Positions 2,105 to 53,960 of a stretch of DNA of 64,000 nt are shown one piece after another. How positions within the stretch are numbered: the first letter of the stretch is position 1; the number at the start of each line of letters is the position of its first letter. The stretch is from sequence record PX441839.1, one strand, 5' to 3'. The translations under genes were made by a program, and so were the position numbers. Under the pieces are notes generated by a model that was not told the DNA's origin, ran no database searches, and saw only the letters and a program-made list of their open reading frames with translations. Source of the DNA: a phage.

Positions 2105-2143
2105 GTTGACTTTGATTTATGCCGCTGTATAATGGGCGGCATA
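2105..2143 (+). promoter_or_regulatory. sigma70-type early promoter (class II)
   Basis: TTGACT, 17 bp, TATAAT; palindrome atgccgc / gcggcat flanks the -10. Confidence 0.55.
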
Positions 2144-2185
2144 GGTAAGAGAAACAAACACAAACCAAGTAAACAAGGGTGTATC

Positions 2186-2674
2186 ATGAAAATTGAAAAA
2201 TTCAAATCACTGTCTAACTATTCTTCCGACTTGATTGACGGCGTGATCCAAGCTTTTGGGAGTGAAGAATATTTCCTGGAGAGTTTTAGAGATGTTGCTC
2301 GATACGGCGGCGACAAAGGGATCGGTTTCATTTACTACACGGAAACGGACCAATTCTGGAAAGATTTAGGCCCACAAATTAAAGAGATGGTAGAAATAGA
2401 CGCCGAATCTTTCACCGGATCAAATGACTATTACACCGTGTGCGAAATGCTGGCAGGGTTCAAAATCTCAAAACAAAATGATCTTTGTGTTGACAAGTGG
2501 TTAGAGTTCCTATATGGTATCAGCCAGGACGAAGAAAATAGTTTAGATGCCCTTTGTGATGAGTGGGATCAAAATATGGCCCGTTGGGTGCTGGGGGTGT
2601 ATGCCGTTGAACGTGTATCCCAAGATCTGGAAAGTTTAATTGATAACGGGGATATTGACGAGGAAGATGTTTAA
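2186..2674 (+). CDS. hypothetical early protein (162 aa)
   Basis: ATG at 2186 downstream of promoter; the listed start at 2132 lies inside the -10 element. Confidence 0.5.
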   Translation: MKIEKFKSLSNYSSDLIDGVIQAFGSEEYFLESFRDVARYGGDKGIGFIYYTETDQFWKDLGPQIKEMVEIDAESFTGSNDYYTVCEMLAGFKISKQNDLCVDKWLEFLYGISQDEENSLDALCDEWDQNMARWVLGVYAVERVSQDLESLIDNGDIDEEDV

Positions 2675-16867: not shown

Positions 16868-17068
16868 CGTCTTCTCCCTTTTTAGTGTCGTGACTATTTT
16901 ATCATATTATGGTCCGATATAACACAAAGGGATTGACAAAAAGGTAATGTTATGAAAACTCCTAACAGATTTTTACAAAAACTGTTTAAAAGGTTAAAAT
17001 GCAGTTTATTACATAGAAAATGCCTATTAACAGGATCTGGTCAATAGGCATAACCGTTGAGTGAAATT

Positions 17069-17659
17069 TTATGCAAGTTCGAAATAGCGATCACGAGCCA
17101 TTGAGTATCTCGGTTCTGCGATCCCAGTTCCGTAGACGTACCACCTTCCAGTGGTGGAGATTCTCCCACCATACGAACCGAGTTCAAGGTCTCCATACAT
17201 CAAGTCAAAACCGATGTCAGTGTCAATAACCTTTAATCGACCATCATTCAGTCCCAGTTGGTTGTAAAACAAATCTTTAGCCATGAAAGCCCACTCACAG
17301 GCTTCCATCTCTGCACTATCCTTGTCGTTTGTTCTTGCATAGGCAAATAGCTCCAACTTCAAGAAAATACTGTAATGAGTGTTGTCGCTCTCGCTTCGGA
17401 AGCAAGGCGTCAAAGCCATCAGCATCTCACCTGGGAATACCTCTCCGTCAATGTCCATCTGTAAGAAAGATTGTTCCGCAGATGCGACAAAGTAAGTTTC
17501 GTCGTGGTGTTTGTACCTAAAGTCAACACCTTCGACGGGTGCGGTATGTGACATCGCCTTATCACTCACACACATTGGGACTCGACAAGGGTCAAATCCC
17601 TTTTTCTTCCAATACTCTGTTGCCCATAAGATTGAATTCATACTTATTGAATGTTTCAT
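17069..17659 (-). CDS. hypothetical enzyme with class-II aaRS-like motifs (196 aa)
   Basis: CFRSE...F resembles class II motif 2 (fRxE) and YGTGIAEPR resembles motif 3 (GxGxGxxR); first gene of a translationally coupled three-gene unit. Confidence 0.5.
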   Translation of the reverse strand: MKHSISMNSILWATEYWKKKGFDPCRVPMCVSDKAMSHTAPVEGVDFRYKHHDETYFVASAEQSFLQMDIDGEVFPGEMLMALTPCFRSESDNTHYSIFLKLELFAYARTNDKDSAEMEACEWAFMAKDLFYNQLGLNDGRLKVIDTDIGFDLMYGDLELGSYGGRISTTGRWYVYGTGIAEPRYSMARDRYFELA

Positions 17660-18201
17660 TATTTCCTAGCTCCGCTCTCAAATGCCCTTTTTGTTACCTT
17701 TGCCATAGCTTCGAGGTCTTCCATTGTCACTGTTGGGTGATTTTTCTCAAGGTATCCCTTTATTGCCCCAATAATGTCACTAAGTTCTTGCAGGGCCATC
17801 AGTTTGACACCTTGTTTCTCAGCATCCATGAATTCCTGCACCTCTTCCATCACTTTCCCTGAGGTCCCGTATGCATGTTTTTCTATATCTACAAGGTGGT
17901 AGCCTGGTGACTTTTTACTTGGACTTACCTTATCTCTTACTTTTACCCAAAACACCCCATTTCGAGTGTCGGTGCTAACAACTGTTCGGATGTAGATCCA
18001 TTCCCCAAGCTCCTCCTTCACTTTGAATCTGTGCCCTGGTTCAATGGTATCCATATCGATAATCTCATCGTGACTAATTTCATCAATGACCGACACAAGT
18101 ACGTTGGGAAGCAGTTTGCATTCATTTTCCATCAGCGATGCTGAAAGCATCACCTCCAGGGCACTCATTTCCATACCTATCTCCTCTTTTAATTTTTCCA
18201 A
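17659..18201 (-). CDS. MazG-like all-alpha NTP pyrophosphohydrolase domain protein (180 aa)
   Basis: C-terminal EEVQEFMDAEKQG ... LQELSDIIGAI matches the MazG acidic helical pattern; start overlaps the downstream gene. Confidence 0.45.
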   Translation of the reverse strand: MEKLKEEIGMEMSALEVMLSASLMENECKLLPNVLVSVIDEISHDEIIDMDTIEPGHRFKVKEELGEWIYIRTVVSTDTRNGVFWVKVRDKVSPSKKSPGYHLVDIEKHAYGTSGKVMEEVQEFMDAEKQGVKLMALQELSDIIGAIKGYLEKNHPTVTMEDLEAMAKVTKRAFESGARK

Positions 18202-19304
18202 GCCATATCTTGAACCTTAAGAATAACTTCTTCTGCTAACTTCTTGTCTGAATTATACGGCAACGAAGTAGACTTGTAAAGGACATTTCGAACGTACTCG
18301 TCCTTTCCCTCTGCCCACTCAAGAATCTCATCGAGAGTCTTCGATCCATTTCGGATTGCCAATAATTCATCAGCATCTTCACGGAACACATTGACTTCCC
18401 CTGTTGTGAGGATCTCTTCCGCCATTCGCATCAGGCGAACAAGGTGCATAGCGTGTTTTGTGTCGTAACCGAATTTAACCTCCAATTCATGGCGTGTGGC
18501 ATTACGGTTTTTCTTCCAATTCCAATAGTTCTTGTGCTTTTCTTTTGCCTGTTTGTGTTCTTCCCGCATGTACTTAACAAAGAACAGCGGAGGCTGGCGC
18601 TTAATACTGTCTGGGATCTCTTCATACACAACCTTCCTGATAGAACCATCTGGATTGAACATAGGTGGAACATTGTCCCGATGGTCAGGAACAACAGCAA
18701 AATGATCTGCACCAAGTGGAATCATTGAACAAACCCCAACCATGTTATTCAGTTTCCTCATGAAGTCCTCGTGCTTGAGCACAGGAACAGACAAATAACT
18801 TTGCACAAGTCTGAAAAACTCCAACTGACTTGGTGCTTTTTCTGGTTGCGGGTTGTTAATCCACTTATCGTGACCTCGGATACGCTTAAGTTGGCTCATT
18901 GCATACCCGCTAAATCTGTGCGCCACGTTGGAATTCAAAAAGGTATGAGCATTGTCCCGAAGAATATCAAATTCCGGCGTTCTGTACAGGATCTCTTGGT
19001 CCCTAGTGAATAGGGTCTCAATGATGTTTGGGTTCATATCCAGAAACAAACTCATGAACGTATTCAATTCATAAACTTTACCATCCTCTGCTCCAGGGAT
19101 GTTTAGTTCAGTTACCTTCTTGAAGGGTGTCCGCACAACACCCGGTTTTGCAACAAAGATACCTCGGATATCTGTATCACTCGTCGGAAGAGATGTACCG
19201 TAAGCCTTCGATCCTGACAAGTTTAGCATGACCACTTTTGAAACGTCTGGATGCTTTTCCAGACTTGCTACCATACTTAATACCTCTCCATTCGGAACAC
19301 ACAT
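18189..19304 (-). CDS. Pol-beta-superfamily nucleotidyltransferase (about 371 aa)
   Basis: hG[GS] ... [DE]h[DE]h signature LSGSKAYGTSLPTSDTDIRGIF; ATG at 19304 preceded by GGAGGAGG RBS. Confidence 0.6.
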   Translation of the reverse strand: MCVPNGEVLSMVASLEKHPDVSKVVMLNLSGSKAYGTSLPTSDTDIRGIFVAKPGVVRTPFKKVTELNIPGAEDGKVYELNTFMSLFLDMNPNIIETLFTRDQEILYRTPEFDILRDNAHTFLNSNVAHRFSGYAMSQLKRIRGHDKWINNPQPEKAPSQLEFFRLVQSYLSVPVLKHEDFMRKLNNMVGVCSMIPLGADHFAVVPDHRDNVPPMFNPDGSIRKVVYEEIPDSIKRQPPLFFVKYMREEHKQAKEKHKNYWNWKKNRNATRHELEVKFGYDTKHAMHLVRLMRMAEEILTTGEVNVFREDADELLAIRNGSKTLDEILEWAEGKDEYVRNVLYKSTSLPYNSDKKLAEEVILKVQDMAWKN

Positions 19305-19400
19305 GTTTACCTCCTCCAATTCGACCATCGTATAAATCACAGAGGCCACACCCTCTGCTTTTTAATTTTTTATAGTTAGAACAGTTCTCGCAACTACGTG

Positions 19401-19766
19401 TCACCATAGGAAGTTGACACCATAAGAAATCAAGAGGATCAACATTGTAAAGCTGTATGCCAGGCTGTACAGAACTGTACCTACAGTTGAGTCTGGACTA
19501 CGTTGAGTAGCCATCACCTTAATCCAATGGTACACTGCACTTGACCAGTGGAGTACAACGATTGATGTCCCCAGTACAAAAGGTGCGGCACTATACAAAC
19601 TGTAGCTTAACCACATACCAAAAGCGCAGAACAGCGTCAGGATGAAAATTGCACCCGGTTTCATGTGTTTCCCAAACCCAGGTCCTGACTTACCTCCTAA
19701 CAGACAGGTTATGACACCAAGAAAAGACAGAGAGTTTAGAACCAAGAGTACATAAAATTGCCACAT
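19401..19766 (-). CDS. integral membrane protein (121 aa)
   Basis: Three to four hydrophobic helices. Confidence 0.5.
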   Translation of the reverse strand: MWQFYVLLVLNSLSFLGVITCLLGGKSGPGFGKHMKPGAIFILTLFCAFGMWLSYSLYSAAPFVLGTSIVVLHWSSAVYHWIKVMATQRSPDSTVGTVLYSLAYSFTMLILLISYGVNFLW

Positions 19767-20164: not shown

Positions 20165-20468
20165 TCAATTTCTCCAAAACAAAACCAACCAGTAGGTCAA
20201 TGATGGCGATAAATGCTGCTACAGTTCCCACTGCAATCAGGAACGGCAGTAGTGTAAGTATGGGTCCTGACATGAACCCTGCAAATGCCCCGATAAAAGA
20301 TCCAACTATCGCCATTTCGTATTTTCGAGACTTAGCTATCCCTTTTGTTACTCGGTGCAGAACAAATATCCAAATAACGATACCCATTGTTAACCACACA
20401 GGTGGGTACATTGCGTAGCTCTCTGCCCAAACACTGGCGACTTTTAAAAATTCCATCATATCACTCAC
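20151..20468 (-). CDS. integral membrane protein (105 aa)
   Basis: Multiple hydrophobic helices. Confidence 0.5.
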   Translation of the reverse strand: MSDMMEFLKVASVWAESYAMYPPVWLTMGIVIWIFVLHRVTKGIAKSRKYEMAIVGSFIGAFAGFMSGPILTLLPFLIAVGTVAAFIAIIDLLVGFVLEKLNEGK

Positions 20469-20937
20469 CCTTTAAGCGAAGCTTTTTAATATTCACCAAA
20501 AGCTCTCGCTCACCCTCTGTAAAGTAACGGGTATCCCCATCTTCCGTGAGGTATGTAAATGGGGCATTACCCTCCTCGTCAAGTTTAGAGGAATACATAT
20601 ACTCTGGCAGTACAATACAGGCCGCAGTTAATGCACCATTCAAAGCATCCTCTGTTTCCTGGAAAAAGGAAGATGGCAGGTGCTTGTTCTTGTCGAAGAT
20701 GTCGATAAGGTCGAATATCTTCTGCTGATAACCACCATTAAGTACGATGATTGTCTTATCTGTGGATGCCCACTGTTTTGCCATCCTCACAGCAGCATGG
20801 CCTTGGTTTACCGCAGAGTTGTACTTATGCATAAGTTCAACAATGGCGTGAGCAGACTGAATACCTGCATGGATACCTGCGATATACTGATTAACAACAC
20901 AATACATACGGGTTGACATATTTCTCTCCTTAATCAT
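20461..20937 (-). CDS. putative peptidyl-tRNA hydrolase, PTH2-like (158 aa)
   Basis: MYCVVNQYIAGIHAGIQSAHAIVEL and QW...KTIIVL follow the PTH2 pattern (M.LVVR...G.AAQ.SHA / W...K.VV); sits directly before the CCA enzyme. Confidence 0.45.
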   Translation of the reverse strand: MIKERNMSTRMYCVVNQYIAGIHAGIQSAHAIVELMHKYNSAVNQGHAAVRMAKQWASTDKTIIVLNGGYQQKIFDLIDIFDKNKHLPSSFFQETEDALNGALTAACIVLPEYMYSSKLDEEGNAPFTYLTEDGDTRYFTEGERELLVNIKKLRLKGE

Positions 20938-22243
20938 TTAACCATTTTGGTGTATATGCGTATTGCAAATTACGAATATTCTTTTCTGTAATATCTGACT
21001 TAGCTTTTAGGATACCTCTTGCAACATAGCCTACTTTCAGACTCTTTACCTTTTGCTGGATAACCTCTGGTCGTCCTTTGAACTCCTCTGCGATCTCTCT
21101 GCTCTTTTTAGATATCTCTGACCTGTTTCTTACCAACTCCGCAACAGCACCGAGCAAGATATAAGGTTGATCATAGGCATCGTGAATTTTTGTAGGCCCT
21201 CGTCCACGAGCATCGCAAATACACGCCTCTACAAATTTCATTATAAACTCTTGGTCTTTCTCACCTCTCAACCGAGAAATTAAATCATATACCTTTTTCG
21301 GCCTCATGTCCAACACCCTGTGAAGTCGGGTATGATCGTCACATACCCTCCAAGCAAGGTCCATCCATTTGTTTGGAACTCCGAACCTGTCTCCCAACGA
21401 TTTTACGTAACCAAGTCCCTCAAACTCATGACCTCGTAGATGACCATGATCCCAGTACATAACCTTTCCAAGATCGTGGCACAATACTGCCCATTTCACC
21501 TCCGGTGCTGACTTAAGCCCTTGTGCGTAGTCCAAGCAAAGAAGGGTGTGTACATAGGCATCTCCTTCTGGGTGGTGAGCCTCAGGTTGCTTAACCCCTT
21601 TAAGATTATTTACCTCTGGCATTTCTCCAAGTTCGCACAAGGTGTCTATCATTATTGACGGTTTGTTCAAAGAAGATTGGTCTTCAAAACACTTACGGAT
21701 CTCCGCCATTTTTCTTTCTTTTGGGAGAGCCGCAAGGTTTTCCTTTGCTCGGTGTGCCAAAAGAACAGTGCTTGCTGCAACTTGGAAAGTTCCACCGTAC
21801 CTGGCGAACAATCTTGCCAGTCGGTAAATTCGCAAAGGGTCATCTCGTAATGTGTCACGGGAGACATGTCTAAGGACTTTCCTTTCTATGTCCTTTGCCC
21901 CATTAAAAGGATCAACATATTCTCCGGTTTCCAAATCTTTTGCAATCGCATTTATAGTAAGATCTCGTCTCTTTAAGTCTTCTTCGATTGTTACATCTGG
22001 GCTGAAAACTACCTCAAAATCATGGTATCCTGCTCCAGTTGATCGTTCGGTACGTGCCAAGGCGTACTCTTCCTTGGTTTCTGGGTGAAGATAAACAGGG
22101 AATGCAGCACCAACTTGCTCAAACCCCATTTCAATCATGTCCTCGTGGGTATATCCAACACAAACATAATCCTTATCTTTTGGCTCCAGACCCATCAGTT
22201 CGTCACGGACGGCACCTCCAACCAAGTAGATCTTCTTATTCAC
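20930..22243 (-). CDS. cca: tRNA nucleotidyltransferase (CCA-adding enzyme) with HD domain
   Basis: N-terminal LVGGAVRDELMG ... DKDYV head-domain motifs and a C-terminal HD-type region; 437 aa. Confidence 0.8.
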   Translation of the reverse strand: MNKKIYLVGGAVRDELMGLEPKDKDYVCVGYTHEDMIEMGFEQVGAAFPVYLHPETKEEYALARTERSTGAGYHDFEVVFSPDVTIEEDLKRRDLTINAIAKDLETGEYVDPFNGAKDIERKVLRHVSRDTLRDDPLRIYRLARLFARYGGTFQVAASTVLLAHRAKENLAALPKERKMAEIRKCFEDQSSLNKPSIMIDTLCELGEMPEVNNLKGVKQPEAHHPEGDAYVHTLLCLDYAQGLKSAPEVKWAVLCHDLGKVMYWDHGHLRGHEFEGLGYVKSLGDRFGVPNKWMDLAWRVCDDHTRLHRVLDMRPKKVYDLISRLRGEKDQEFIMKFVEACICDARGRGPTKIHDAYDQPYILLGAVAELVRNRSEISKKSREIAEEFKGRPEVIQQKVKSLKVGYVARGILKAKSDITEKNIRNLQYAYTPKWLND

Positions 22244-27429: not shown

Positions 27430-28527
27430 TTACAGATCAAAATCCAGAGAATCATTATCAATGCTGGAATCAATCTGCCCAGACAGGTATTGGGTGTTCT
27501 CAACTTCTTGAGGTGTGGCTTGAACACCCGCCGTATTTAGGTGAGAACTGATCCAAGGGATCGGGTTTTTTGTCGGTGAGGGCAGGATGCTCCCCAGGCC
27601 AACTGCTCGCATACGCTGGTCAGTAATGTGATCGATATACTCACAAACAATGTTTTTGTTCAGTCCAATCATTGCACCGTCTTTAAACAAGTAATCAGCC
27701 CACTCTTTTTCCTGTGCTGCTGCATCAGCAAACAGTTGGAAAGCCTCTTCTTGGCAATCCTCAGCAACTCGTGCCATCAGATCACCTTCCCCTCCATTCT
27801 GCATCTCTTTCAGGATGTACTGTGTTCCAGAAAGGTGCAGTGCCTCATCTCGTGCAATAAGCTCAATAATGGAAGTATTGCCAATCATTAACCCACGCTC
27901 ACCAAAAGCAAAGGAACATGCGAAACTTACATAGAACCGAATAGCTTCCAGAGCATTGATGCTGTGCATACACAGGTACAGTAAACGACTGTGTTCATAA
28001 GGGTCCACTTTTAGGCCCATGTCTCGACGAATGTTCATCTGATACAGTTCATCATAGAGCTTAGTGACAGACTCCGCTCGCTTCATGATCTCTGGTGTCG
28101 TCATAATCTGGTCCAGGATCTCAGAGGGATTTGCAAACACGTTCCGCATAATATGGGTATACGAGCGTGAGTGAATGGTCTCACTAAACGCCCAAGTTTC
28201 AATCCAAGTCTCCAGTGCAGGATCAGAGCAAATTGGAAGTAAAACTGCGTTTGGACTACGTCCTTGAACAGAGTCCAGCAATGTTTGGTATTTCAGGTTA
28301 CTGATGAAAATATGTTTTTCGTGCTCAGGTAACTCTCGGAAATCTCGTGCATCACGAGTAACATCAATTTCCTCTGGACGCCAGAAGAATGCCAACTGTT
28401 TTTCAATCAGCTTTTCAAACTTTGGGTGTTTTTGTTGGTCGTATCGTGAAACGTTAACAGATTCTCCGAAAAACATCGGCTGTTCCATGAAATTGAACTG
28501 GTTCTTGTTGAAAGTTGTAAATGCCAT
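27430..28527 (-). CDS. nrdB: ribonucleotide reductase class Ia small subunit
   Basis: PMFFG ... RYDQQK ... [16 protein letters not shown] ... [24 protein letters not shown], closely resembling enterobacterial NrdB. Confidence 0.9.
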
Positions 28528-28617
28528 TACTTTACTTCTCCTCTTCTCTCGTCAACTGGAATTAATTGTACTCAAAGGTCTGATTACTGTCAACACAATA
28601 TTCATACATTTGAGAAT

Positions 28618-28641
28618 TAAAAACCGCCCCGAAGGGCGGCT
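28618..28641 (-). terminator. hairpin / terminator between nrdA and nrdB
   Basis: accgcccttcggggcggt followed by a T-run on the minus strand. Confidence 0.5.
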
Positions 28642-28648
28642 TGTTACA

Positions 28649-30913
28649 TTAGAGCTTACAAGCCCCACTTTCACAAGATGCGTCACCAGACTCATCTTGG
28701 TTGTTACCATCATAAGTCTCTTGGTAGTACAGAGTCTTAACCCCACGCTTGTATGCGTACATGATGTCTTTCAGAACCTGGGCCAGCGGTAACTTTCCGC
28801 CAGGAAAATCCCAAGGTTTGTAGAACGTGTTTGCCGAGATAGATTGGTCAATGAACTTCTGGATAATTGCAACCAGATCCATATAACCCTTCATTCCCTC
28901 AATGTCCCACTTATACTCATACTTAACATCTGGGTTTCCAACCTCAGGGACCAGCACGGGCAGAAGCCCAACAGGTGCCTTTTTGTAAGACAGTGCCTTA
29001 CGTGGAGGTTCAATACCGTTTGTAGAGTTGGTAATCTGACTGGAGGTCTCACAAGGCATCATTGTGGAAAGCGTAGAGTTACGCAGACCATGCTTGCGAA
29101 TTTCCTCCCGCAGACCTTCCCAATCTTGCAGTAAGGTGGCGGTGTGAAGCTCATCAACTTCTTTCTTGTATCGGTCAATCGGCAGAATACCTTTAGAATA
29201 GGTCGTCTGATCGAAATACTCACAAGAACCACGCTCTTTTGCCAACTCAACAGATGCTTTCAGCAAATAATACTGGAATGCCTCTGCTAAACGGTGGACT
29301 TCGTTGTTTGCAGACCCATCGGAATACTTTAACCCACGCTTCGCAAGGTAGTACGCCAAGTTGGTCCAACCAACACCCAATGTACGTCGCTTAAGTGTTT
29401 TCAATGCCGCCAGAACAGGGTAATTCTGGTAATCAAGCAAGTTGTCCAGTGTACGGACAGCGCTTCGGCAAGGAATCTCCAAATCTTCCAGCTTTTCAAT
29501 CTTGCCCAAGTTAACAGCGGAAAGTGTACACAATGCAACCTCTCCGTCATCATTCGGATCAAGATCGTCATTGATCGGCGCTGTAGGTAATGCAATCTCC
29601 ATGCACAGGTTTGACTGCTTAACTGGAGCAACCTCCGAAATAAACGGACTGTTGGTGTTGCAATGATCAACGTTCTGGATGTAAATTCGTCCAGTTTGAC
29701 TACGCTCGCTACCAAGCAGTGTAAACACAGCATTTGCGGTCATCGTCTTCTTCTCTACAGAAGGATCATTCTCCAGTTGCTCATACAGCTTCTCAAATGC
29801 ATTGATGTCCTTGAAGAACAGTTCATACAGTTTACCACCTGCAACGTTGGGATGGAAGAATGTAATATTACCTTTCTTCTGTAAACGTGCATAAAACATC
29901 TTAGACAATTGAACACCGTAGTCAACATGACGGGCACGAGTGCTCTCAGTACCACGATTGTTCTTCATGACGATCAGTTGTTCAAAGTCCCAGTGCCAGA
30001 TCGGGTAGAAGTAGTTGGCAGATGCCTTACGTACACCACCTTGTGATGTCCACCCCAGAGATTCTTGATACATACGGACAATAGGTACAGTGCCAGCATG
30101 TTTAACCTCCCCACCTCGAATCTCTGACCCTTGTCCACGAATCATTCCAAAGTTCAGTCCGATACCTGCACGTTGAGCCGCATACTTACCTTGTGCAGTG
30201 TTGGCATTAAAGATTTGGTTAATCTCATCGCCAGCTTCAATCAGAACACAAGAACTGAACTGACGTGTCGGGGTTCGAACACCTGCCATAATCGGGGTAG
30301 GCAGAGAAAGAACCATTGTTGACACACTCTCATACAGTTCAACAATCTTTTCCAGTCGGACTTCACGATCCTCTTTGGCATTCAGGCACATTGCAATAAG
30401 CATCAGTGCCATTTGAGGGGATTCGTAAATCTCTCCTGTTTTTCTGTTCTGGACCAAATATTTGTCTTCGTATTGAACCATCGCTGCATAGGTGTAATCA
30501 AAGTCACGATCATGTTTAATTCGTGCATTGAGGTAGTCCATTTCATCTGCATTGAAATCTTCAATGAGGTGCTTGTCATACTTACCCATCTCAACCAACT
30601 TCTGAACATGCACCGCCAAGTGAGGTGGTGTAAATGTTCCGTAAGCCATCTTCCGCAGTTTAAAAAGTAGCAGTCGAGACGCAGCATACTGATAATCAGG
30701 GTTTTCAACAGAGATCAGGTCTGCGGCAGACTTGACCAGAGTATCGTGGATATCTGATGTTGAAATACCATCAAACACCTGCAACTGTGCCTTCATAAGG
30801 ATCTCCGAAGGACTCACATCAAGACCTTCGCTCGCCCAAACTGCAACACGGTTTGCCTTCTCTGCGTCAAATGCTTCACGAGTACCATTTGCTTTAACTA
30901 CTGAAATGCTCAA
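28649..30913 (-). CDS. nrdA: ribonucleotide reductase class Ia large subunit
   Basis: 754 aa; N-terminal ATP-cone, PTPIMAGVRTPTRQFSSCVLIE, NLCMEIALPT, C-terminal CESGACKL. Confidence 0.9.
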   Translation of the reverse strand: MSISVVKANGTREAFDAEKANRVAVWASEGLDVSPSEILMKAQLQVFDGISTSDIHDTLVKSAADLISVENPDYQYAASRLLLFKLRKMAYGTFTPPHLAVHVQKLVEMGKYDKHLIEDFNADEMDYLNARIKHDRDFDYTYAAMVQYEDKYLVQNRKTGEIYESPQMALMLIAMCLNAKEDREVRLEKIVELYESVSTMVLSLPTPIMAGVRTPTRQFSSCVLIEAGDEINQIFNANTAQGKYAAQRAGIGLNFGMIRGQGSEIRGGEVKHAGTVPIVRMYQESLGWTSQGGVRKASANYFYPIWHWDFEQLIVMKNNRGTESTRARHVDYGVQLSKMFYARLQKKGNITFFHPNVAGGKLYELFFKDINAFEKLYEQLENDPSVEKKTMTANAVFTLLGSERSQTGRIYIQNVDHCNTNSPFISEVAPVKQSNLCMEIALPTAPINDDLDPNDDGEVALCTLSAVNLGKIEKLEDLEIPCRSAVRTLDNLLDYQNYPVLAALKTLKRRTLGVGWTNLAYYLAKRGLKYSDGSANNEVHRLAEAFQYYLLKASVELAKERGSCEYFDQTTYSKGILPIDRYKKEVDELHTATLLQDWEGLREEIRKHGLRNSTLSTMMPCETSSQITNSTNGIEPPRKALSYKKAPVGLLPVLVPEVGNPDVKYEYKWDIEGMKGYMDLVAIIQKFIDQSISANTFYKPWDFPGGKLPLAQVLKDIMYAYKRGVKTLYYQETYDGNNQDESGDASCESGACKL

Positions 30914-30939
30914 ATTGATCTCCTTAACTGAACTATTAA

Positions 30940-31161
30940 TTACTTATCTTTAACTTCTGTGTACTTTTCGACATTTTCCTGCTCGGAAGCTCCAATGCGA
31001 ATTGTACGGCCTGAATACGGATCGTGATATGTATCATCATAACCCACAGACTCATCAACTAGATCGTTAAACTGTAACCATCCAATATACTCGTTCTTGC
31101 TTGCAAAGCCTCGTTGGAACCATTTGGTGTGCTCAACAGGTACAGTTGCTGATTTTGCCAT
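30940..31161 (-). CDS. hypothetical protein (73 aa)
   Basis: Six-frame ORF. Confidence 0.5.
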   Translation of the reverse strand: MAKSATVPVEHTKWFQRGFASKNEYIGWLQFNDLVDESVGYDDTYHDPYSGRTIRIGASEQENVEKYTEVKDK

Positions 31162-31175
31162 TTATAAAACTCCTC

Positions 31176-31667
31176 TTATTTCAGGTTAGGGTTAAGGAAA
31201 TGTTCCAGGCTCTCTACCTGAGGTAGATCCATTACCAGCACTTCGTTTCGGTCTTCTTTTTTGGTGTATTTGCGAGTATTAACCTTGTCGTTTGTTGGCT
31301 GTTCGAATGCCAGGGAGTTAACAAAGTCTGTTGCCGCTGCTCCAGATACATCCAAAATATCCACCTTGTCATAAATACCCACGTAGGGGAATTCACGTTT
31401 GTTTCGTAGACGACCAGAAAACACAGTTGTTTGTCGGAACATATATGGTTTGTCAATACAACGCACATTGACATTATTCATCTGGTCAATACGGCAAGGG
31501 ATATATTTCTGTTCTTCCTCATTCCACGTAGAAACCTCAAAGCCAATAAGGTGCAAAACTTGGCGCAGTGTTTCTTTTTTCTTGGGGTCCTTGTTGAGGA
31601 TTTTGGCACATTCAAGGATGAAATCCAAGGTTACAGAGCCGTACTTAACTTCTTCTTTAAACGCCAT
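31176..31667 (-). CDS. hypothetical protein (163 aa)
   Basis: Six-frame ORF. Confidence 0.5.
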   Translation of the reverse strand: MAFKEEVKYGSVTLDFILECAKILNKDPKKKETLRQVLHLIGFEVSTWNEEEQKYIPCRIDQMNNVNVRCIDKPYMFRQTTVFSGRLRNKREFPYVGIYDKVDILDVSGAAATDFVNSLAFEQPTNDKVNTRKYTKKEDRNEVLVMDLPQVESLEHFLNPNLK

Positions 31668-31751
31668 TAAAATTCTCCTTCGTACCTTAATTAACTGGGG
31701 CTTTTGCCCCAGATGTGTATAGTATCAAACCTTGAGTTTGTTTGTCAAACT

Positions 31752-32768
31752 TTATTTTGCAACATGACCAGGAATAAGTTGTCGGTGCTGAATCCAACCT
31801 TTAAAGTTACCACTCCAGAAGTTTCCTTCACGGTCAACGTGCGTGATTCCCTCCTCCCAAGTATCTGCCGCCCAGAATACGTTCTGGAACAGCAAACCGT
31901 CCTCAACATCTTCGATTGTTTCTTCAATCTCTTTTGCCTGATGCTCGAAAGGAGATGCATGTACCTTTTTACCAGCAACCAATCGAGTATAGATGTCCAG
32001 CGCTTTGTCCTTTGTGCTGTTCAAACGTCGATAGCTCACCTGACCGCAACAAGAGGCAGAGATCCGCAGAGCTTCTTCCTCCGTCAGCATCACAGGGGTG
32101 TCATTCTCATCAAGTACACAGTACCCTTCAAAGATGTGTTCATCCTCTCCCTCTCCGTCACCAAATCCGTAAACGTGGTCAACGTAAGGTGTGTGCCAAG
32201 TACCCGTTTGTAGTAATTCAGGTTCGGAATTTTCCAGAGCCTCTTTCATGAGGCTAGCTAGGACCTCAATAGTTGGATCTGCATCTGCATCCACACGCAG
32301 CCACAGGAAGTTATCCATTTCTGTTGTGGTCATCACAGTCTTCATCATCTGGAATGGCTCAATCAGTCGATTAGCGATCTGCTTGTGATACCCAGCATCA
32401 TCAAAAGCTTGAGCAAAGTCACATGCTCGATATGCCGCCGCCGCCCATGCCTCTCGACCAGTTACCTTATTGCATCGATCGATTGTTACAAGAGAGTCGT
32501 GCTCAACACCCTTGTCCTGCATACCTGGCTGGTTAGAACCAAAACGGACAGGCATTGCCATATTTTCTTTGATTAGCTTAATCATCGTTTTGATCGGCAC
32601 AGCGCGGGATGACATAGCGTTACGACTGAATAAACGGTGCGTCATAAACTCACTGTGGATAATTCGAGGGTACGTTAACTCAAAAGTTGTAATTCGACCA
32701 CCACGCTCTCCAATTGAATCAGCAATGATCTGAACTTTAATGTTTTCACGACTAAATACCTGACCCAT
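31752..32768 (-). CDS. thyX: flavin-dependent thymidylate synthase (ThyX-like)
   Basis: HRLFSRNAMSSR fits the ThyX signature RHR-x2-S-x4-S-x-R; 338 aa, longer than typical ThyX. Confidence 0.55.
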   Translation of the reverse strand: MGQVFSRENIKVQIIADSIGERGGRITTFELTYPRIIHSEFMTHRLFSRNAMSSRAVPIKTMIKLIKENMAMPVRFGSNQPGMQDKGVEHDSLVTIDRCNKVTGREAWAAAAYRACDFAQAFDDAGYHKQIANRLIEPFQMMKTVMTTTEMDNFLWLRVDADADPTIEVLASLMKEALENSEPELLQTGTWHTPYVDHVYGFGDGEGEDEHIFEGYCVLDENDTPVMLTEEEALRISASCCGQVSYRRLNSTKDKALDIYTRLVAGKKVHASPFEHQAKEIEETIEDVEDGLLFQNVFWAADTWEEGITHVDREGNFWSGNFKGWIQHRQLIPGHVAK

Positions 32769-33004
32769 TATAACCCCTCTTCATTATATTTTAACATTTC
32801 TGCCACAGTCGTTGGCAAACCACCGAGTTCAACTAACCAGTTTCCTCGTTCACCTACGCTTTTAACACTTTCAATACCTGTGTTACCTTGATCCTTAATT
32901 TCCATAAGGACAGATAACACATCGAGTGAGTCACCTTCCATCCGTAACCAGCCATCGATGTATAAACCTTCCCACTCATCACCTTGGAAATATACGATCT
33001 TCAT
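32768..33004 (-). CDS. hypothetical protein (78 aa)
   Basis: Six-frame ORF. Confidence 0.45.
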   Translation of the reverse strand: MKIVYFQGDEWEGLYIDGWLRMEGDSLDVLSVLMEIKDQGNTGIESVKSVGERGNWLVELGGLPTTVAEMLKYNEEGL

Positions 33005-33186
33005 CTCATCTTCCTCATTCTGTAAGGAACCGCAACATTATGCCTTACTGCTAGGTATGTGTCAAACATTTCCTTACACATATCCCTTGTTACCTTAAAA
33101 GAGGCGAGGAGATCGCCACTCTCCTCACTATAAACCTCTACGTGTTCACCATACCTTACAACCCACCTTCCCTTTCCACACCTCAC
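33001..33186 (-). CDS. hypothetical protein (61 aa)
   Basis: Six-frame ORF. Confidence 0.4.
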   Translation of the reverse strand: MRCGKGRWVVRYGEHVEVYSEESGDLLASFKVTRDMCKEMFDTYLAVRHNVAVPYRMRKMR

Positions 33187-33791
33187 AGTGTTTCCTCAAG
33201 GAATTTTCCAATGTCTTCCCACTTGTAGCTTTCAAAATCGTACTTTACACGAGGGGCCACTTCCTGACTATACGGGGTCAAGAATTTAACTTTAATAACA
33301 TCATCACTAAACTGATTGAGGAAGTTATTACGGTCATCAATAATTACCCCTCCAGCAACACCAGCCTTAACCTTTGTGGCATAAAAACCAGACCCATCTG
33401 ATCCTTTGTCCAAGTCAAGGAACGGGAAGTGATATTTCAAGAATCTCACTTTACTGCTGAAATGGCCCTTTTTGCAGTAAGATACAAAACGGATCGGGTG
33501 CCCAGCGTCATGAAGGCGTTTTATTACCTCAACACAATTAGTGTACGGCTTTAACTTATCGTACAGGTACGGGTCTTCCCAAAACTCGTATGGCCCAATC
33601 TGCTTTTTACATGCCGATGGGAAGTATCGGGAAAGATTATAATCAAAGAACCCTTTTGTATCTCGGTCCTCTATCATCAATCCATAATCCGCCGGAGTCT
33701 TATACACATCTTCCATCCAATCCAGCCATGCATTACCAGAGTCAACTACCGTCAGATCCACGTCAACAAGAATGGCTACTTTATTTTGCAT
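33183..33791 (-). CDS. HAD-superfamily hydrolase, probable 5'(3')-deoxyribonucleotidase
   Basis: N-terminal ILVDVDLTVVDS (DxDxT motif I). Confidence 0.5.
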   Translation of the reverse strand: MQNKVAILVDVDLTVVDSGNAWLDWMEDVYKTPADYGLMIEDRDTKGFFDYNLSRYFPSACKKQIGPYEFWEDPYLYDKLKPYTNCVEVIKRLHDAGHPIRFVSYCKKGHFSSKVRFLKYHFPFLDLDKGSDGSGFYATKVKAGVAGGVIIDDRNNFLNQFSDDVIKVKFLTPYSQEVAPRVKYDFESYKWEDIGKFLEETL

Positions 33792-42136: not shown

Positions 42137-42952
42137 TTAATATTTCTCCAGATTCGGTTCAAAGAAGGTGCAAGGCTTCATGATCTTACCTTTATCATCC
42201 TTAAACACAACACGGTTTCCGAACACCTCTCCACGGATACCTTTGTATCTACCTGCATGGTGCTTATTAAGAGATTCTGCCTCGATACTGATCATGTCAT
42301 CAACAGAAAGACCTCCCTTAACAACCCCATATCGAGAAGAAATGAATCCCTCTTTGAATTGTTCAATAGTTGGAATCTTTGACTCATTGGATGACAGAAC
42401 TTCCTCCAATACCGCCTCAATATCCAAATCCATATTGTGGAGAATTGTGCATATCGCACGGAAAGCGAAATGACTCTCCCCGAAACTAATGATCGATGAG
42501 GACAAAATACGAACAAGATCAACCAGAGAGTCGTGTGCCCACGTACCTGGGTCAAGGGCGATCTCTGAGTAATCAACGGCAGCATCAATTGCATCTTCAA
42601 TATTATCAAGAATCTCTGCGTCAACCTTAAGCTTCTTAAGGAAATCCCAGTAAGATACCACAACAAAAAGATCTGCGAGCGCGTCGATGGTTTCTTTCCG
42701 ATCTTTATTCAAAAGAGCATCTTTAAGCTCGTTAAGTTCCTCAACACAGAACGATTTTTGACGATCGATCATCTCTTCACTGTAGTCGTGGTTTTTTCGA
42801 GCGGTTAAGTTAAACTCGCGGACTCGTGAAAAAGCACTTTTTAAAATGTCTCGTTTTTCTTTTTTGGCAAAAGATTCAATAAAAGAATATTCTTGTGTCA
42901 CTTGATTCTCCTCTTCTTTGAAAGTAGGGCCATTATACATGACCAATTCCAT
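42137..42952 (-). CDS. hypothetical protein, possible MazG-like helical domain (271 aa)
   Basis: ELNELKDAL ... ETIDALADLFVVV resembles the MazG EExxE / ELGD pattern, weakly. Confidence 0.4.
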   Translation of the reverse strand: MELVMYNGPTFKEEENQVTQEYSFIESFAKKEKRDILKSAFSRVREFNLTARKNHDYSEEMIDRQKSFCVEELNELKDALLNKDRKETIDALADLFVVVSYWDFLKKLKVDAEILDNIEDAIDAAVDYSEIALDPGTWAHDSLVDLVRILSSSIISFGESHFAFRAICTILHNMDLDIEAVLEEVLSSNESKIPTIEQFKEGFISSRYGVVKGGLSVDDMISIEAESLNKHHAGRYKGIRGEVFGNRVVFKDDKGKIMKPCTFFEPNLEKY

Positions 42953-47867: not shown

Positions 47868-48158
47868 ATGAATATTCAAGAACAGGTTAAAATAACTTTC
47901 GAAGACCTTGTGGAACTACATAAGAAACGAAAATATCAAAAGGGCCGAGAAAAGAAGGCAATGGAGGATGTGGTATTCTTTTCTAAAGATGGTCATGGAC
48001 TTTCCAAGAAAGAGGCAAACAGGAAGGTTGATGCAGCGTGGGCTACACAACGGGACGCTGTGAACATTGTGTCAGGTATTGATAAGCAGATTGAATATGA
48101 ACTGAATGCCATAGGGCAGATTATCAACTTTGTTGCGGAAAAGGAGAGTGATAAATGA
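47868..48158 (+). CDS. hypothetical protein (96 aa)
   Basis: ATG at 47868 after GAGAGGAGAGAAG RBS. Confidence 0.5.
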   Translation: MNIQEQVKITFEDLVELHKKRKYQKGREKKAMEDVVFFSKDGHGLSKKEANRKVDAAWATQRDAVNIVSGIDKQIEYELNAIGQIINFVAEKESDK

Positions 48159-49069
48159 TTTCTTTACATCTCGATAACTTTAAAAGGGTTAAGCTTGAGT
48201 TTATGACGTTCAGCGGTGGAGAGCGTAACGTCCGTATAGGTGGACTGGATGTCGAAAAAGATGGTGTTCTTGAGTTTGCTGGATATGGGGAGGTTGACCA
48301 TCTCTCTCAACGTAAGTGGGAAAATTATCGTGTAACAGCACATATTCAAAGCTCAGATGATATCATGGATCTGTTACTTCTAAAGGATGCCATTGATCGT
48401 GTGGGCAATGGATGTTTGCGACGTGTATACTCAATCCTGCATCTTCCGTATCTCCCATATGCTCGACAAGACCGTGCAATGGTAAACGGGGAGGCGATCT
48501 CTGTTGTCGTTATGGCAAACCTGATTAACTCTCTTGAGTTTGATGCCGTGTGGATTGATGACCCGCATTCTGATGTTGGTCCGTCGCATATAAAAAACGC
48601 CGTAATTACCCCTCAGCATGAGCTTTTGCTGGACATGTGTAACAAAGATGATGTTCTTTCCGATGGAACAATCATTGTTGCACCTGATGCAGGTGCCATG
48701 AAAAAGGCAAGCAAGTTGGCTGAACTCGCTGATTTACCTCTCGGGACTGGTGGTAAACACAGGGATGTCAAGACAGGTAAGATTACAGGAACAACTTACA
48801 CAGGGCCAGATGTAAACGGTAAACGATGCCTGTTGGTAGACGATATTGCGGATGGCGCTGCCACATTTGTGTGTCTTGCAGAGAAACTAAAATCCCTGGG
48901 TGCAAAACAGGTTGATCTGTATGTAACGCACGGCATTTTCTCAAAAGGGATTGATGACCTTGAGCATATCGATAAGATTTATTCGGCATACCCCTGGAGA
49001 AAGAACGTTAAGTGGAAAAATGGAAAAGGTAAGCTAAATACGGTTGACATCGTAAGCTGGTTCGAGTAA
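48155..49069 (+). CDS. ribose-phosphate pyrophosphokinase (Prs)-like; candidate ADP-ribose pyrophosphate synthetase (NARP1 Adps)
   Basis: LPYLPYARQDR and LLVDDIADGAATF match the Prs motifs; immediately upstream of the NAMPT-like gene. Confidence 0.8.
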   Translation: MISLHLDNFKRVKLEFMTFSGGERNVRIGGLDVEKDGVLEFAGYGEVDHLSQRKWENYRVTAHIQSSDDIMDLLLLKDAIDRVGNGCLRRVYSILHLPYLPYARQDRAMVNGEAISVVVMANLINSLEFDAVWIDDPHSDVGPSHIKNAVITPQHELLLDMCNKDDVLSDGTIIVAPDAGAMKKASKLAELADLPLGTGGKHRDVKTGKITGTTYTGPDVNGKRCLLVDDIADGAATFVCLAEKLKSLGAKQVDLYVTHGIFSKGIDDLEHIDKIYSAYPWRKNVKWKNGKGKLNTVDIVSWFE

Positions 49070-49125
49070 AGTACATTTTATCGGGAGGCGTGTTGCCTCC
49101 CACATACAACGAAGGAGAGTTACAT

Positions 49126-52138: not shown

Positions 52139-52173
52139 TCTTAATACATAGCCCGTAAGGAATTGCGGGATTG

Positions 52174-52249
52174 CCGATTTAGCTCAGTTGGTAGAGCGCT
52201 TCACTTGTAATGATGATGTCGCAGGTTCGAGTCCTGCAATCGGCACCAG
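52174..52249 (+). tRNA. tRNA-Thr (anticodon UGU)
   Basis: Manual cloverleaf: acceptor gccgatt/aatcggc, D-arm gctc-agttggta-gagc, T-arm gcagg-ttcgagt-cctgc, CCA encoded; one U-U mismatch in the anticodon stem. Confidence 0.7.
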
Positions 52250-52254
52250 ATAAG

Positions 52255-52328
52255 GCCCAATAGCTCACTGGTGAGAGCCAACCCCTCATAAGGGTTAGGG
52301 CGGGGATCGTAACCCCGGTGGGCCACCA
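52255..52328 (+). tRNA. tRNA-Met (anticodon CAU; initiator, elongator or Ile-lysidine not distinguished)
   Basis: Acceptor ggcccaa/gtgggcc, anticodon arm aaccc-ctcataa-gggtt, CCA encoded. Confidence 0.75.
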
Positions 52329-52347
52329 ACCAAAGAGAGAATTTAGC

Positions 52348-52426
52348 GCGGGTGTATCTCATCCGTCTTCTAAACGGACGTTAACCGAGTAATTGGAGTA
52401 TGGGGGTTCGAATCCCTCCACCCGCG
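52348..52426 (+). tRNA. atypical tRNA-like gene with anticodon-type hairpin UCU (Arg?)
   Basis: Canonical T-arm ggggg-ttcgaat-ccctc and acceptor gcgggtg/cacccgc, but no D-arm, a 23-nt extra segment, no CCA, and the acceptor extends to a perfect 16-bp stem (52339-52354 / 52419-52434). Confidence 0.4.
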
Positions 52427-52450
52427 CTAAATTCTTTTGAGGTGTAAAAA

Positions 52451-52966
52451 TTGCTAAACTTGAAAAATCAAAATATAGATAAAGGCACGGGATATTTATA
52501 CGTGTACGATCCAAGTCACCCAATGGCAAATAAGTCTGGAAAGGTTTATGTTCACAGGTATGTTGCAGAGACGGGGTTTGGTATAAAACTAACACCTGAC
52601 CTGATAGTTCACCACAAGGATGAGAATAAGCTAAACAACGAGCTAACAAATCTCGAAGTTATGACTTATTCTGAACATGCCCGTCACCACCACGGGGCGG
52701 ATTTTGTAGAATGTGTATGCAAGACCTGTGGCAATGTAACTTTGAGGAGGCCCTCGGAAGTTGTATCATTTTGTTCACACAAGTGCTCAACAACATTCAG
52801 AAGGAAATTTGAAATCTCTCCTCAAGAGTTGCAGGATTTGGTTTGTAACTACCCAGTTAGTGTTATTGCAAAGATGTTTGGGGTTAGTGATACAGCAATA
52901 CACAAGAAATGTAAAACCCTAGGGATTAAAAAGATGCCGAAAGGATTCTTTTTAAGACTCCCTTGA
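52451..52966 (+). CDS. HNH homing endonuclease
   Basis: YVHRYVAE ... IVHHKDENKLNNELTNLEVMTYSEHARHH is a classic HNH motif; C-terminal Cys cluster and HTH-like region. Confidence 0.7.
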   Translation: MLNLKNQNIDKGTGYLYVYDPSHPMANKSGKVYVHRYVAETGFGIKLTPDLIVHHKDENKLNNELTNLEVMTYSEHARHHHGADFVECVCKTCGNVTLRRPSEVVSFCSHKCSTTFRRKFEISPQELQDLVCNYPVSVIAKMFGVSDTAIHKKCKTLGIKKMPKGFFLRLP

Positions 52967-52998
52967 CATAGGTAATTGATCCTGATAAGATAATTACA

Positions 52999-53397: not shown

Positions 53398-53428
53398 GAC
53401 CCTTCGGGGTCTTTGAGTTTTCTTTTGA
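53398..53428 (+). terminator. rho-independent terminator
   Basis: gaccc-ttcg-gggtc followed by tttgagttttctttt. Confidence 0.5.
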
Positions 53429-53457
53429 CGATTATTTTCGTACAAAAGAGAATTTAA

Positions 53458-53544
53458 GCCAGGTTATACCGTAGGGGTAGCGGAGGAGACTGTAAATCTC
53501 TGGTCATTGCGACTCGGGTGGTTCGACGCCATCACCTGGCACCA
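53458..53544 (+). tRNA. tRNA-Tyr (anticodon GUA), type II
   Basis: Acceptor gccaggt/acctggc, anticodon arm ggaga-ctgtaaa-tctct, long variable arm, CCA encoded. Confidence 0.7.
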
Positions 53545-53549
53545 AATAT

Positions 53550-53639: not shown

Positions 53640-53720
53640 AATATCGCCCCTTATATAAAAGAACACCTGCGCGGCTGGAAAAACCCACTCAACAGTTCTT
53701 GAAAAGGGGCAACAATTTAC

Positions 53721-53798: not shown

Positions 53799-53805
53799 AA
53801 CAATA

Positions 53806-53950: not shown

Positions 53951-53960
53951 CACAATAAGA

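Follow-up and report, generated by a model that had tools for sequence, protein, structure and literature searches.

Organisation of the three-gene unit

The window analysed here, a stretch of 64,000 nucleotides of phage DNA (sequence record PX441839.1), carries on its minus strand three closely packed genes that encode, in order of transcription, an RlaP-family nucleotidyltransferase, a protein with a MazG/HisE-like domain, and a small protein resembling the catalytic core of a class II aminoacyl-tRNA synthetase (aaRS). A translationally coupled three-gene unit had been proposed at this position by the first-pass annotation, made by a model from the letters alone, and open reading frames (ORFs) are found there as described, with a 14-nt junction and a 1-nt overlap between them. 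The phage is a Vequintavirinae-type myovirus whose locus is 97% identical to that of Salmonella phage SSBI34, and with E-values of 1e-18 to 1e-82 for their homology matches the three ORFs cannot be chance ones. We are confident that the three genes, though transcribed as a single unit, fall into two functional entities that are separate from each other, one being RlaP and the other an obligate unit formed by the MazG-like and aaRS-like proteins. The elements of the locus are as follows.

19304 to 17069, minus strand: three-gene unit in the order RlaP, MazG-like, aaRS-like (from the ORF listing)
19305..19400, minus strand: 96-nt intergenic region 5′ of RlaP, which marks the unit's 5′ limit (the ORF before it ends at 19401)
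18189..19304, minus strand: gene 1, RlaP-family Pol-beta nucleotidyltransferase, 371 aa from the ATG at 19304 (Pfam PF10127)
17659..18174, minus strand: gene 2, the middle gene, 171 aa, with an N-terminal extension and a MazG/HisE-like domain (start-site context)
17905..18174, minus strand: N-terminal ~90 aa of the middle protein, with no relatives outside SSBI34
17662..17904, minus strand: predicted MazG/HisE-like all-alpha NTP pyrophosphohydrolase domain, residues ~91–171 (profiles, motif and structure prediction)
17069..17659, minus strand: gene 3, minimal SerRS-derived class II aaRS catalytic core, 196 aa (profiles, structure prediction and Foldseek)
17051..17020, minus strand: terminator-like hairpin closing the unit (consensus scan only)

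The 96-nt region at the 5′ boundary holds a short hairpin and the RlaP Shine-Dalgarno sequence, GGAGGAG, which lies 6 nt upstream of the ATG at 19304; an alternative start, GTG 19349, would give an RlaP of 386 aa. A promoter scan further upstream returned a site at 19471..19444 that scores only 9/12, no better than chance. RlaP ends with a TAA at 18189, leaving 14 nt before the middle-gene ATG at 18174, and within this gap, 6 nt upstream of that ATG, is the sequence AAGAGGAG. The middle gene therefore more likely begins at ATG 18174, giving 171 aa, than at the alternative TTG 18201 (180 aa), which is without such support; the coding sequence annotated in the SSBI34 record likewise has 171 aa. 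The TAA of the middle gene and the ATG of the third share a single nucleotide (TAATG at 17659), and 18 nt past the stop codon of the aaRS-like gene the consensus scan places the closing hairpin, with a 12-bp stem and a T-rich tail.

The third gene encodes a minimal SerRS-like core

The class II aaRS motifs that the first-pass annotation had picked out in the 196-aa protein, CFRSE and YGTGIAEPR, are both present, at residues 86–90 and 176–184 respectively. The AlphaFold 2 (AF2) model, with a predicted local distance difference test (pLDDT) score of 93.6, has the fold of a class II aaRS catalytic core, and Foldseek comparison with the PDB puts the cores of pyrrolysyl- and seryl-tRNA synthetases (PylRS and SerRS) on top, with E-values of ~1e-9, template modelling (TM) scores of 0.6–0.7 and a probability of 1.00. 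In sequence searches gene 3 matches phrog_4806 with an E-value of 3e-51, and a profile of its family finds SerRS in the PDB at 4e-7.

Alignment with E. coli SerRS using hhalign (91% probability) covers SerRS residues 186–321 only. This span takes in motif 1, a TxE-type loop (SAEQ in gene 3, PTAE in SerRS) and motif 2, where the sequence TPCFRSE is identical in the two proteins and the motif-2 loop of gene 3 is ~8 aa shorter. By inspection, the motif 3 sequence YGTGIAEPR and an ExGS element match NGSGLAVGR and EISS of SerRS. Among 50 diverse gene-3 homologues the invariant residues include Ser60 and Glu62 of the TxE-type loop, Arg88, Phe99, Glu103, Asp152, Glu159, Ser162, Thr178 and Arg184, and the class II motif residues Pro28, Arg88, Phe99 and Arg184 are all invariant or nearly so. 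The elements SAEQ, PCFRxE, FxKLEL, ExGS and GTG[ILV]AxPR are conserved throughout and align with the E. coli SerRS motifs. The likeness to SerRS thus extends over motifs 1–3, TPCFRSE, the TxE-type SAEQ, FxKxE, ExGS, the G[ST]G[LI]A..R signature and the fold.

In other respects the protein departs from SerRS. It has 196 aa compared with ~430 aa, and it begins at motif 1, so that no N-terminal coiled-coil tRNA arm, anticodon-binding domain or RNA-binding domain is found in it; its family is, moreover, partnered with a MazG-like protein. The score against the NCBIfam serS model TIGR00414 is 18.5 bits, where the cutoff is 301. Because of the missing tRNA- and RNA-binding domains and of this low score, we regard gene 3 as an intact adenylating core but not as a SerRS. 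Judged by its sequence and predicted structure, it is a minimal SerRS-derived class II core with catalytically intact motifs.

The best analogy for the way in which such a protein might work is provided by truncated aaRS paralogues, namely the SerRS-like amino acid:carrier-protein ligases, YadB/GluQRS, PoxA/EpmA and AsnA, which have lost their tRNA-recognition domains and kept their adenylation residues (PMC9437257). A review of aaRS paralogues lists no aaRS/MazG family of the present kind (PMC9437257). The amino acid:carrier-protein ligases also differ from gene 3: they have a zinc-dependent, methanogen-type SerRS-like core, whereas that of gene 3 is bacterial-type and much smaller, and no carrier-protein gene or other conserved third gene is found near the pair in 50 lineages. 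The gene-3 family has one invariant Cys, and thus no evident zinc site. We know of no truncated aaRS paralogue for which a MazG/HisE-like partner has been described.

A link with histidine biosynthesis was considered, since the HisZ/HisG/HisE system likewise has an aaRS paralogue and a HisE-type pyrophosphatase in one pathway. The resemblance is superficial. HisZ is non-catalytic and HisRS-like, whereas the core of gene 3 is SerRS-like and keeps its catalytic residues, and there is no HisG in the window or in the flanks; the link was rejected on these grounds. It is probably this surface resemblance to HisZ/HisE that explains the label ‘histidyl tRNA synthetase’ in PHROGs.

The middle gene carries a predicted MazG/HisE-like domain

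The first-pass annotation had described the middle protein as a 180-aa protein with a MazG-type helical domain. A MazG/HisE-like fold is probable, but the length is likelier to be 171 aa, and only the C-terminal ~80 aa are MazG-like. This C-terminal domain (residues ~91–171) matches phrog_6408 with an E-value of 1.8e-34. Against the Pfam PRA-PH model the middle protein scores 16.6 bits (cutoff 21.3; E 0.011), and its relatives give repeated weak matches to PRA-PH and MazG, one of which reaches 22.0 bits and so passes the same cutoff. When a profile of the domain is compared with the PDB, the PRA-PH structures 2a7w and 1yvw and the MazG-like 1vmg rank top (E 0.024 for PRA-PH).

The alignment of the domain has the invariant pattern Y,H…K…EExxE…ExxD…F…R, including an N-terminal G-Y-H, and the metal-site residues Glu21, Glu22, Glu25, Glu41 and Asp44 (domain numbering) are invariant in 39–44 sequences. 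In the AF2 model the domain forms three helices with pLDDT values of 96–98. The low-rmsd (root mean square deviation) Foldseek matches are solely to PRA-PH (1yvw, 2a7w) and MazG (7yh5, 3cra); 1yvw superimposes with a deviation of 2.7 Å over 60 aa at a probability of 0.99. Inclusion of the disordered N-terminal part in the model keeps the E-values of these matches above 0.1. Similarity to HisE and MazG lies in the EExxE…ExxD site, in the best sequence and structure matches and in the size of ~80–90 aa, which is that of stand-alone HisE. The differences are scores below the Pfam thresholds, the extra invariant N-terminal G-Y-H and C-terminal F…R, the three helices of the model, and the obligate pairing or fusion with an aaRS-like core.

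The N-terminal ~90 aa have pLDDT values below 60 and a few β-strands in the AF2 model; tblastn against the 81 viral loci described below found no relatives for them outside SSBI34, and there is no PHROG match. Other lineages bear different extensions at the equivalent position of the MazG-like protein. With the full middle protein as query, a word-indexed search recovered 3 relatives only, and an alignment query reached further.

A second MazG-type protein has its gene in another part of the window, at 42137..42952 on the minus strand. It has 271 aa, passes the PRA-PH cutoff (26.6 bits against 21.3) and matches phrog_671, ‘nucleotide pyrophosphohydrolase’; the phage thus has a conventional MazG besides the paired one.

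In several lineages the MazG-like domain of the pair is fused, at its N- or C-terminus, to a cupin-like domain of ~190 aa with an invariant HxH…G…Y…H pattern (phrog_4784). This domain has no match in Pfam or the PDB, and no gene of its own for it was seen in the window. Designated by locus and position, the fusions are:

L019:9154-9981, cupin-like fusion
L033:8797-9615, cupin-like fusion
L071:8953-9858, cupin-like fusion
L075:10579-11448, cupin-like fusion
L037:9331-10005, cupin-like fusion
L081:9102-9974, cupin-like fusion

The aaRS-like and MazG-like proteins form a conserved pair

The relationship between the second and third genes was examined in a sample of 81 viral loci from IMG/VR, representing ~50 lineages, with flanks of ±10 kb. 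A MazG-like domain adjoins the aaRS-like gene in 77 of the 81 loci, always on the same strand, and hidden Markov model searches find such a domain in further loci. Where the two genes are separate they overlap in 48 of 66 cases, mostly by 1–4 nt, and lie no more than 20 nt apart in 55. Counted by lineage (50), the MazG-like gene precedes the aaRS-like gene in 41, follows it in 8 and is fused to it in 2, one lineage having two arrangements. The two are present as a fused single ORF in 9 of the 81 loci. Among 236 representatives of the aaRS-like family, 13 hold a MazG-like domain; nine of these are clear aaRS-MazG fusions and one (P0345) has the reverse order. Independent fusions in both orders, together with the pervasive translational coupling, speak strongly for the two proteins being a physical and functional unit.

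The distribution of the two genes leads in the same direction. By tblastn of phage records the aaRS-like gene is present in 276 and the MazG-like domain in 267, with a matching taxon profile. The carriers comprise the Vequintavirinae, T4-like phages of Acinetobacter, Morganella and Providencia, phiCbK-like phages of Caulobacter and Brevundimonas, and Microcystis phages. The aaRS-like family at 50% identity numbers 1,704 representatives at E ≤ 1e-3 and 1,207 at E ≤ 1e-30, and the MazG-like family falls into 1,047 clusters when grouped at 90% identity. The pair is widespread in large phages, DPANN archaea and bacteria of the candidate phyla radiation (CPR), with no fewer than 1,200 clusters at 50% identity.

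RlaP is not part of this conserved unit. It is found in 325 phage records with a taxon profile unlike that of the pair, and only 8 of the 81 loci (4 of 50 lineages) have it within 10 kb of the pair; these loci belong to the CR3/phiTE/SSBI34-like clade and to the Acinetobacter T4-like phages. In the latter the RlaP homologue NrdC.11 is encoded 4 kb upstream of the pair on the same strand, and in Erwinia phage pEp_SNUABM_01 RlaP and the pair are 90 kb apart. Genes for a CCA-adding enzyme and a PTH2-like protein occur near the pair in the CR3/phiTE/SSBI34-like clade alone. The placing of RlaP beside the pair is a lineage-specific arrangement. Of the co-occurrence that the first-pass annotation had suggested checking, then, only the part concerning the MazG-like and aaRS-like genes is borne out. 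What the first-pass annotation had named as grounds for refutation holds for RlaP, a member of a known family without conserved co-occurrence, but not for the two remaining genes.

In Acinetobacter phage Lazarus the pair (gp119/gp118; L085:9812-12440) lies 4 kb downstream of nrdC.11 and nrdC.10, within the nrdC region, and its MazG-like protein has a different C-terminal extension, of 125 aa, with no family match.

The possibility that the family is restricted to phages was considered and rejected. A scan of cellular genomes, one per species for 100,044 species, returned 21 loci, of which 20 are in metagenome-assembled genomes (MAGs) and one is a 775-bp fragment in an isolate assembly. Nine of the 20 MAG loci are fused aaRS-MazG genes of 267–293 aa. 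In the Nanoarchaeota/Woesearchaeota flanks examined (L090, L097) the fused genes lie among archaeal housekeeping genes, namely those for aRF1, D-aminoacyl-tRNA deacylase (DTD2), pyruvate dehydrogenase E1 and a diphthine-synthase-like methylase. In four DPANN loci the fused gene is accompanied by a radical SAM gene:

L090:7980-9484, fused aaRS/MazG gene (267–274 aa across the four loci) and radical SAM gene
L092:8001-9487, fused aaRS/MazG gene and radical SAM gene
L097:8001-9487, fused aaRS/MazG gene and radical SAM gene
L105:8001-9474, fused aaRS/MazG gene and radical SAM gene

The radical SAM protein (221–228 aa) is encoded by a gene that overlaps the end of the fused gene by 4 nt, or by 14 nt in L105, and it is possibly a third partner in these archaea. 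Compared with QueE, NrdG, MoaA, viperin and archaeosine-type enzymes it scores far below all of the family cutoffs, and its likeness to MoaA, viperin and NrdG is generic. A radical SAM gene is also found ~1.2 kb downstream of the pair in the clade of Microcystis phages that have the fused form, a protein of 266 aa.

Neighbours of the pair in other phages

All-against-all clustering of 2,519 flanking ORFs, aimed at a conserved third partner, revealed no family present in more than 8 of 50 lineages. Neighbours that do recur are ribonucleotide reductase (RNR), thymidylate synthase, NMNAT-Nudix, Nampt, metallophosphoesterase and RNA ligase; in rV5-like phages NrdD and NrdG are encoded near the pair. 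Of 103 sources, only 16 have an RNR gene within 10 kb of the pair and nine have one within 3 kb, in some cases directly abutting; the proposal that RNR is the main associate of the pair was rejected on this account.

The first gene encodes an RlaP-family nucleotidyltransferase

Gene 1 matches the Pfam RlaP family (PF10127) with 66 bits, well above the cutoff of 23 (E 5.4e-18), and phrog_388, ‘nucleotidyltransferase’, over its full length with an E-value of 1e-81. The Pfam model covers the N-terminal 130 aa, the C-terminal half matching phrog_388 only; a sequence search of the PDB gave no match. The GS…DxD signature reported by the first-pass annotation is present and is completed by a third invariant Asp: in an alignment of gene 1 with T4-type NrdC.11 homologues from Acinetobacter phages, Gly31-Ser32, Asp43xAsp45 and Asp74 do not vary. 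Membership of the RlaP/NrdC.11 group is thus indicated by the Pfam gathering threshold, by the GS/DxD/D set and by alignment along the length of NrdC.11-type homologues.

The family takes its name from the adjacency of some of its members to RNA ligase genes, though only some adjoin ligases (PMC12776372), and T4 NrdC.11 has been placed in it (PMC12776372). Two Pseudomonas RlaPs add 1–2 nucleoside monophosphates (NMPs) to RNA 3′-OH ends, with a preference for damaged RNA (PMC12776372, a December 2025 preprint), and can restore the aminoacylation of tRNA that has been over-damaged and religated (PMC12776372); a jumbo-phage survey arrives at the same predicted function (PMC7824862). From its family membership, gene 1 probably acts as an RlaP on RNA 3′ ends. 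It would extend the 3′-OH of a damaged RNA or tRNA by 1–2 nucleotides, to be followed by ligation or CCA repair, and its partners may be the CCA-adding enzyme encoded 1.6 kb upstream and, as in the SSBI34 genome, an RNA ligase 2 and a phosphatase. Repair of damaged tRNA ends, one of the roles put forward by the first-pass annotation for the whole unit, is supported for RlaP by the biochemistry of its family (PMC12776372) and is not shown for the pair, because RlaP has no share in the constant association of the MazG-like and aaRS-like genes. By itself RlaP adds little, being one more phage member of a family with known biochemistry.

In contrast to those family members that adjoin a ligase, gene 1 is not beside one. 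No RNA ligase was found among the 20 scanned window ORFs of at least 180 aa, a scan that left outside it the ORFs 2132..2674 and 59594..63441; in SSBI34 an RNA ligase 2-like gene and a phosphatase lie ~40 kb from RlaP. The presence of an RNA ligase in the phage genome, as seen in SSBI34, is a further likeness to T4. In the SSBI34 record MZ520832.1 the ligase 2-like protein and the overlapping phosphatase are encoded at 107925-109833 and a small HD hydrolase, annotated as ‘RelA/SpoT family’, at 116792-117349, both in regions outside the window. These genes would complete an RNA-repair or alarmone-hydrolase toolkit, and they are dispersed round the genome.

The CCA-adding enzyme (20930..22243; PolyA_pol and HD domains) and the PTH2-like ORF (20461..20937, minus strand) that the first-pass annotation had placed near the operon are both there, but the latter falls below threshold, with 20.9 bits against 23 in Pfam and 15.3 against 126 in NCBIfam. 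It matches phrog_3668, ‘hydrolase’, and has no sequence match in the PDB. There is an 8-nt overlap between its start and the stop of the gene for the CCA-adding enzyme, which makes co-translation of the two probable.

Function of the aaRS/MazG pair

Taken as a whole, the locus is best explained as RlaP together with a separate, obligate aaRS/MazG enzyme whose reactions are coupled, an explanation that we put at just short of an even chance. The two proteins would be subunits of a single enzyme, carried as an autonomous cassette by large phages and as a fused protein by DPANN archaea. The SerRS-derived subunit is expected to bind ATP and a serine-like α-amino acid and to form the aminoacyl-adenylate, from which the amino acid would be passed to an acceptor other than a tRNA recognised in the manner of SerRS. 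The HisE/MazG-like subunit would cleave the α–β bond of an NTP-type molecule. The two reactions, we infer, follow one another on a single nucleotide-type small molecule, for which HisE, which converts the modified nucleotide phosphoribosyl-ATP (PR-ATP) to PR-AMP, offers a model; the product may then be an amino-acid-bearing or otherwise modified nucleotide.

That the substrate is a nucleotide-type small molecule is a tentative choice, to which we give somewhat less than an even chance. To our knowledge every characterised MazG/HisE enzyme acts on free nucleotides and none on RNA. It is this that favours a small molecule, as do the lack of an RNA-binding module in gene 3, its shortened motif-2 loop, the acidity of both partners (median pI values of 5.1 and 5.3), and the association of the pair with cupin-like, radical SAM and RNR genes.

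Several observations weigh against this explanation. Beyond the pair itself no neighbour is present in more than about 15–25% of lineages, and for this reason the nucleotide-metabolism context may only mirror the general layout of large phages. In 20 of the 81 loci there are tRNA genes within 10 kb of the pair, which they abut in L015, L058 and L064; a few loci have an RNA ligase (PF09414) next to it, and in the present phage the pair shares an operon with RlaP near the CCA-adding enzyme. With these features an RNA or tRNA target is just as compatible. The acidity of the partners does not speak against tRNA binding, bona fide aaRSs being acidic too. The MazG-like assignment is built from weak profile scores (E 0.01–0.06), the motif and the model, and the signature residues of gene 3 correspond only presumably to those that bind serine in SerRS.

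A role in the care of tRNA or RNA 3′ ends is the main alternative, although we consider it unlikely. The mini-SerRS would aminoacylate phage tRNAs, or host tRNAs that have been repaired or are under threat, and would thereby recharge them or shield their 3′-OH from host toxins; the MazG-like protein would be a helper that might, for instance, remove 3′ or 5′ pyrophosphate or control the supply of NTPs, and RlaP, the CCA-adding enzyme and the PTH2-like protein would make up with them an island for tRNA-end maintenance. Co-transcription with RlaP, at a distance of 1–3 kb from the genes of the CCA-adding enzyme and the PTH2-like protein, agrees with this, as do the NrdC.11 gene upstream of the pair in the Acinetobacter phages and the tRNA and RNA ligase genes found close to the pair in other loci; the ancestor, SerRS, acts on the tRNA 3′-OH, and the carriers are mostly large, tRNA-rich phages. 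However, RlaP, the CCA-adding enzyme and the PTH2-like gene are absent from the vicinity of the pair in more than 90% of lineages, and the DPANN fusion adjoins a radical SAM gene rather than RNA-repair genes. Gene 3 lacks a coiled-coil arm or any other RNA-binding module and it is the acceptor-contacting loop of motif 2 that is shortened, and action on RNA would be without known precedent among MazG/HisE enzymes.

Adjacency might alternatively reflect no more than co-regulation of three independent functions, with the MazG-like protein as a house-cleaning or pool-shaping (d)NTP pyrophosphatase and the SerRS-like protein working on its own, for instance as a binder or mimic of host SerRS or, in the way that PoxA modifies EF-P, by aminoacylating a protein. 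Stand-alone dNTPase MazG proteins are common in phages, and the gene at 42137..42952 is a second MazG-like gene in this one; class II cores dimerise through motif 1, which makes heterodimers with host SerRS conceivable. Some truncated aaRS paralogues, too, are known to have a protein or another molecule as acceptor (PMC9437257). Against all of this stand the fusions in both orders, the same-strand adjacency with 1–4-nt overlaps across ~50 lineages, the matching distributions and the invariance of catalytic residues in both partners, and we judge an arrangement of independent functions to be decidedly improbable.

Destruction of a nucleotide second messenger, as the first-pass annotation had also suggested, or more broadly a counter-defence role in which an immune signal or toxic nucleotide (cyclic oligonucleotides, (p)ppApp, ITP/dITP) is cleaved by the MazG-like protein and aminoacylated by the aaRS-like one, is very improbable: the MazG fold does hydrolyse non-canonical NTPs and alarmones and the genes lie in an accessory region of the phage genome, but none of seven ORFs has a PADLOC match, no defence or anti-defence genes recur nearby (the neighbours being RNR, thymidylate synthase, NAD salvage, tRNA arrays and radical SAM), and the fused pair sits among housekeeping genes in DPANN archaea and so is not confined to phages.

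A further proposal is that the pair is an unrecognised two-component enzyme for tRNA-independent or otherwise non-canonical aminoacylation of a nucleotide or an RNA end, with an aminoacyl or modified nucleotide as its product. We regard this as doubtful, though it would open a new branch of aaRS-derived chemistry in phage nucleotide and tRNA metabolism. If the coupling is real, the pair represents a new aaRS-derived enzyme system common to jumbo or large phages and DPANN archaea, its phage holders being the rV5/phi92-like, T4-like Acinetobacter, phiCbK-like and Microcystis phages and the megaphages. The database labels of the family, ‘seryl-’ or ‘histidyl-tRNA synthetase’, are those of canonical synthetases, which its members cannot be, and a real coupling would also put right a common annotation error by which too many ‘phage-encoded aaRS’ are counted.

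A search of the literature on MazG with SerRS or aaRS in phages, or in Vequintavirinae, found no functional study of the pair and mentions at the level of annotation only, as in Citromicrobium phage RXM, where two MazG genes (g118/g119) and a ‘SerRS’ gene (g121) are annotated. The view of the first-pass annotation that this is not a characterised system therefore holds for the aaRS-like/MazG-like pair but not for RlaP. RlaP is of a known kind, and it is the mini-SerRS/MazG-like pair that is new among aaRS-derived enzymes.

Other features of the window

The phage has a tRNA set, as the first-pass annotation had noted, with 10–11 tRNA genes at 52.1–54.4 kb. ARAGORN finds 10 tRNAs on the plus strand at 52173..54361. 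Rfam adds one at 52348..52426 that ARAGORN misses and omits the ARAGORN tRNA-Tyr at 53458..53544, so that the true number is probably 11; a tRNA-Ser(UGA) belongs to the cluster.

At 48155..50916 on the plus strand a PRPP-synthetase-like gene (48155..49069) is followed directly by a gene for a 608-aa protein of the Nampt/NAPRTase family (49090..50916), and the two resemble a pair for NAD salvage or NAD reconstitution. In other phages, NMNAT-Nudix and Nampt genes are found repeatedly in the vicinity of the aaRS-like/MazG-like pair. A block of nucleotide-metabolism genes lies ~10 kb upstream of the operon on the same, minus strand (27430..33791) and comprises the small and large subunits of a class I RNR (27430..30913), a ThyX-like gene (31752..32768) and an NT5C-type 5′-nucleotidase (33183..33791).

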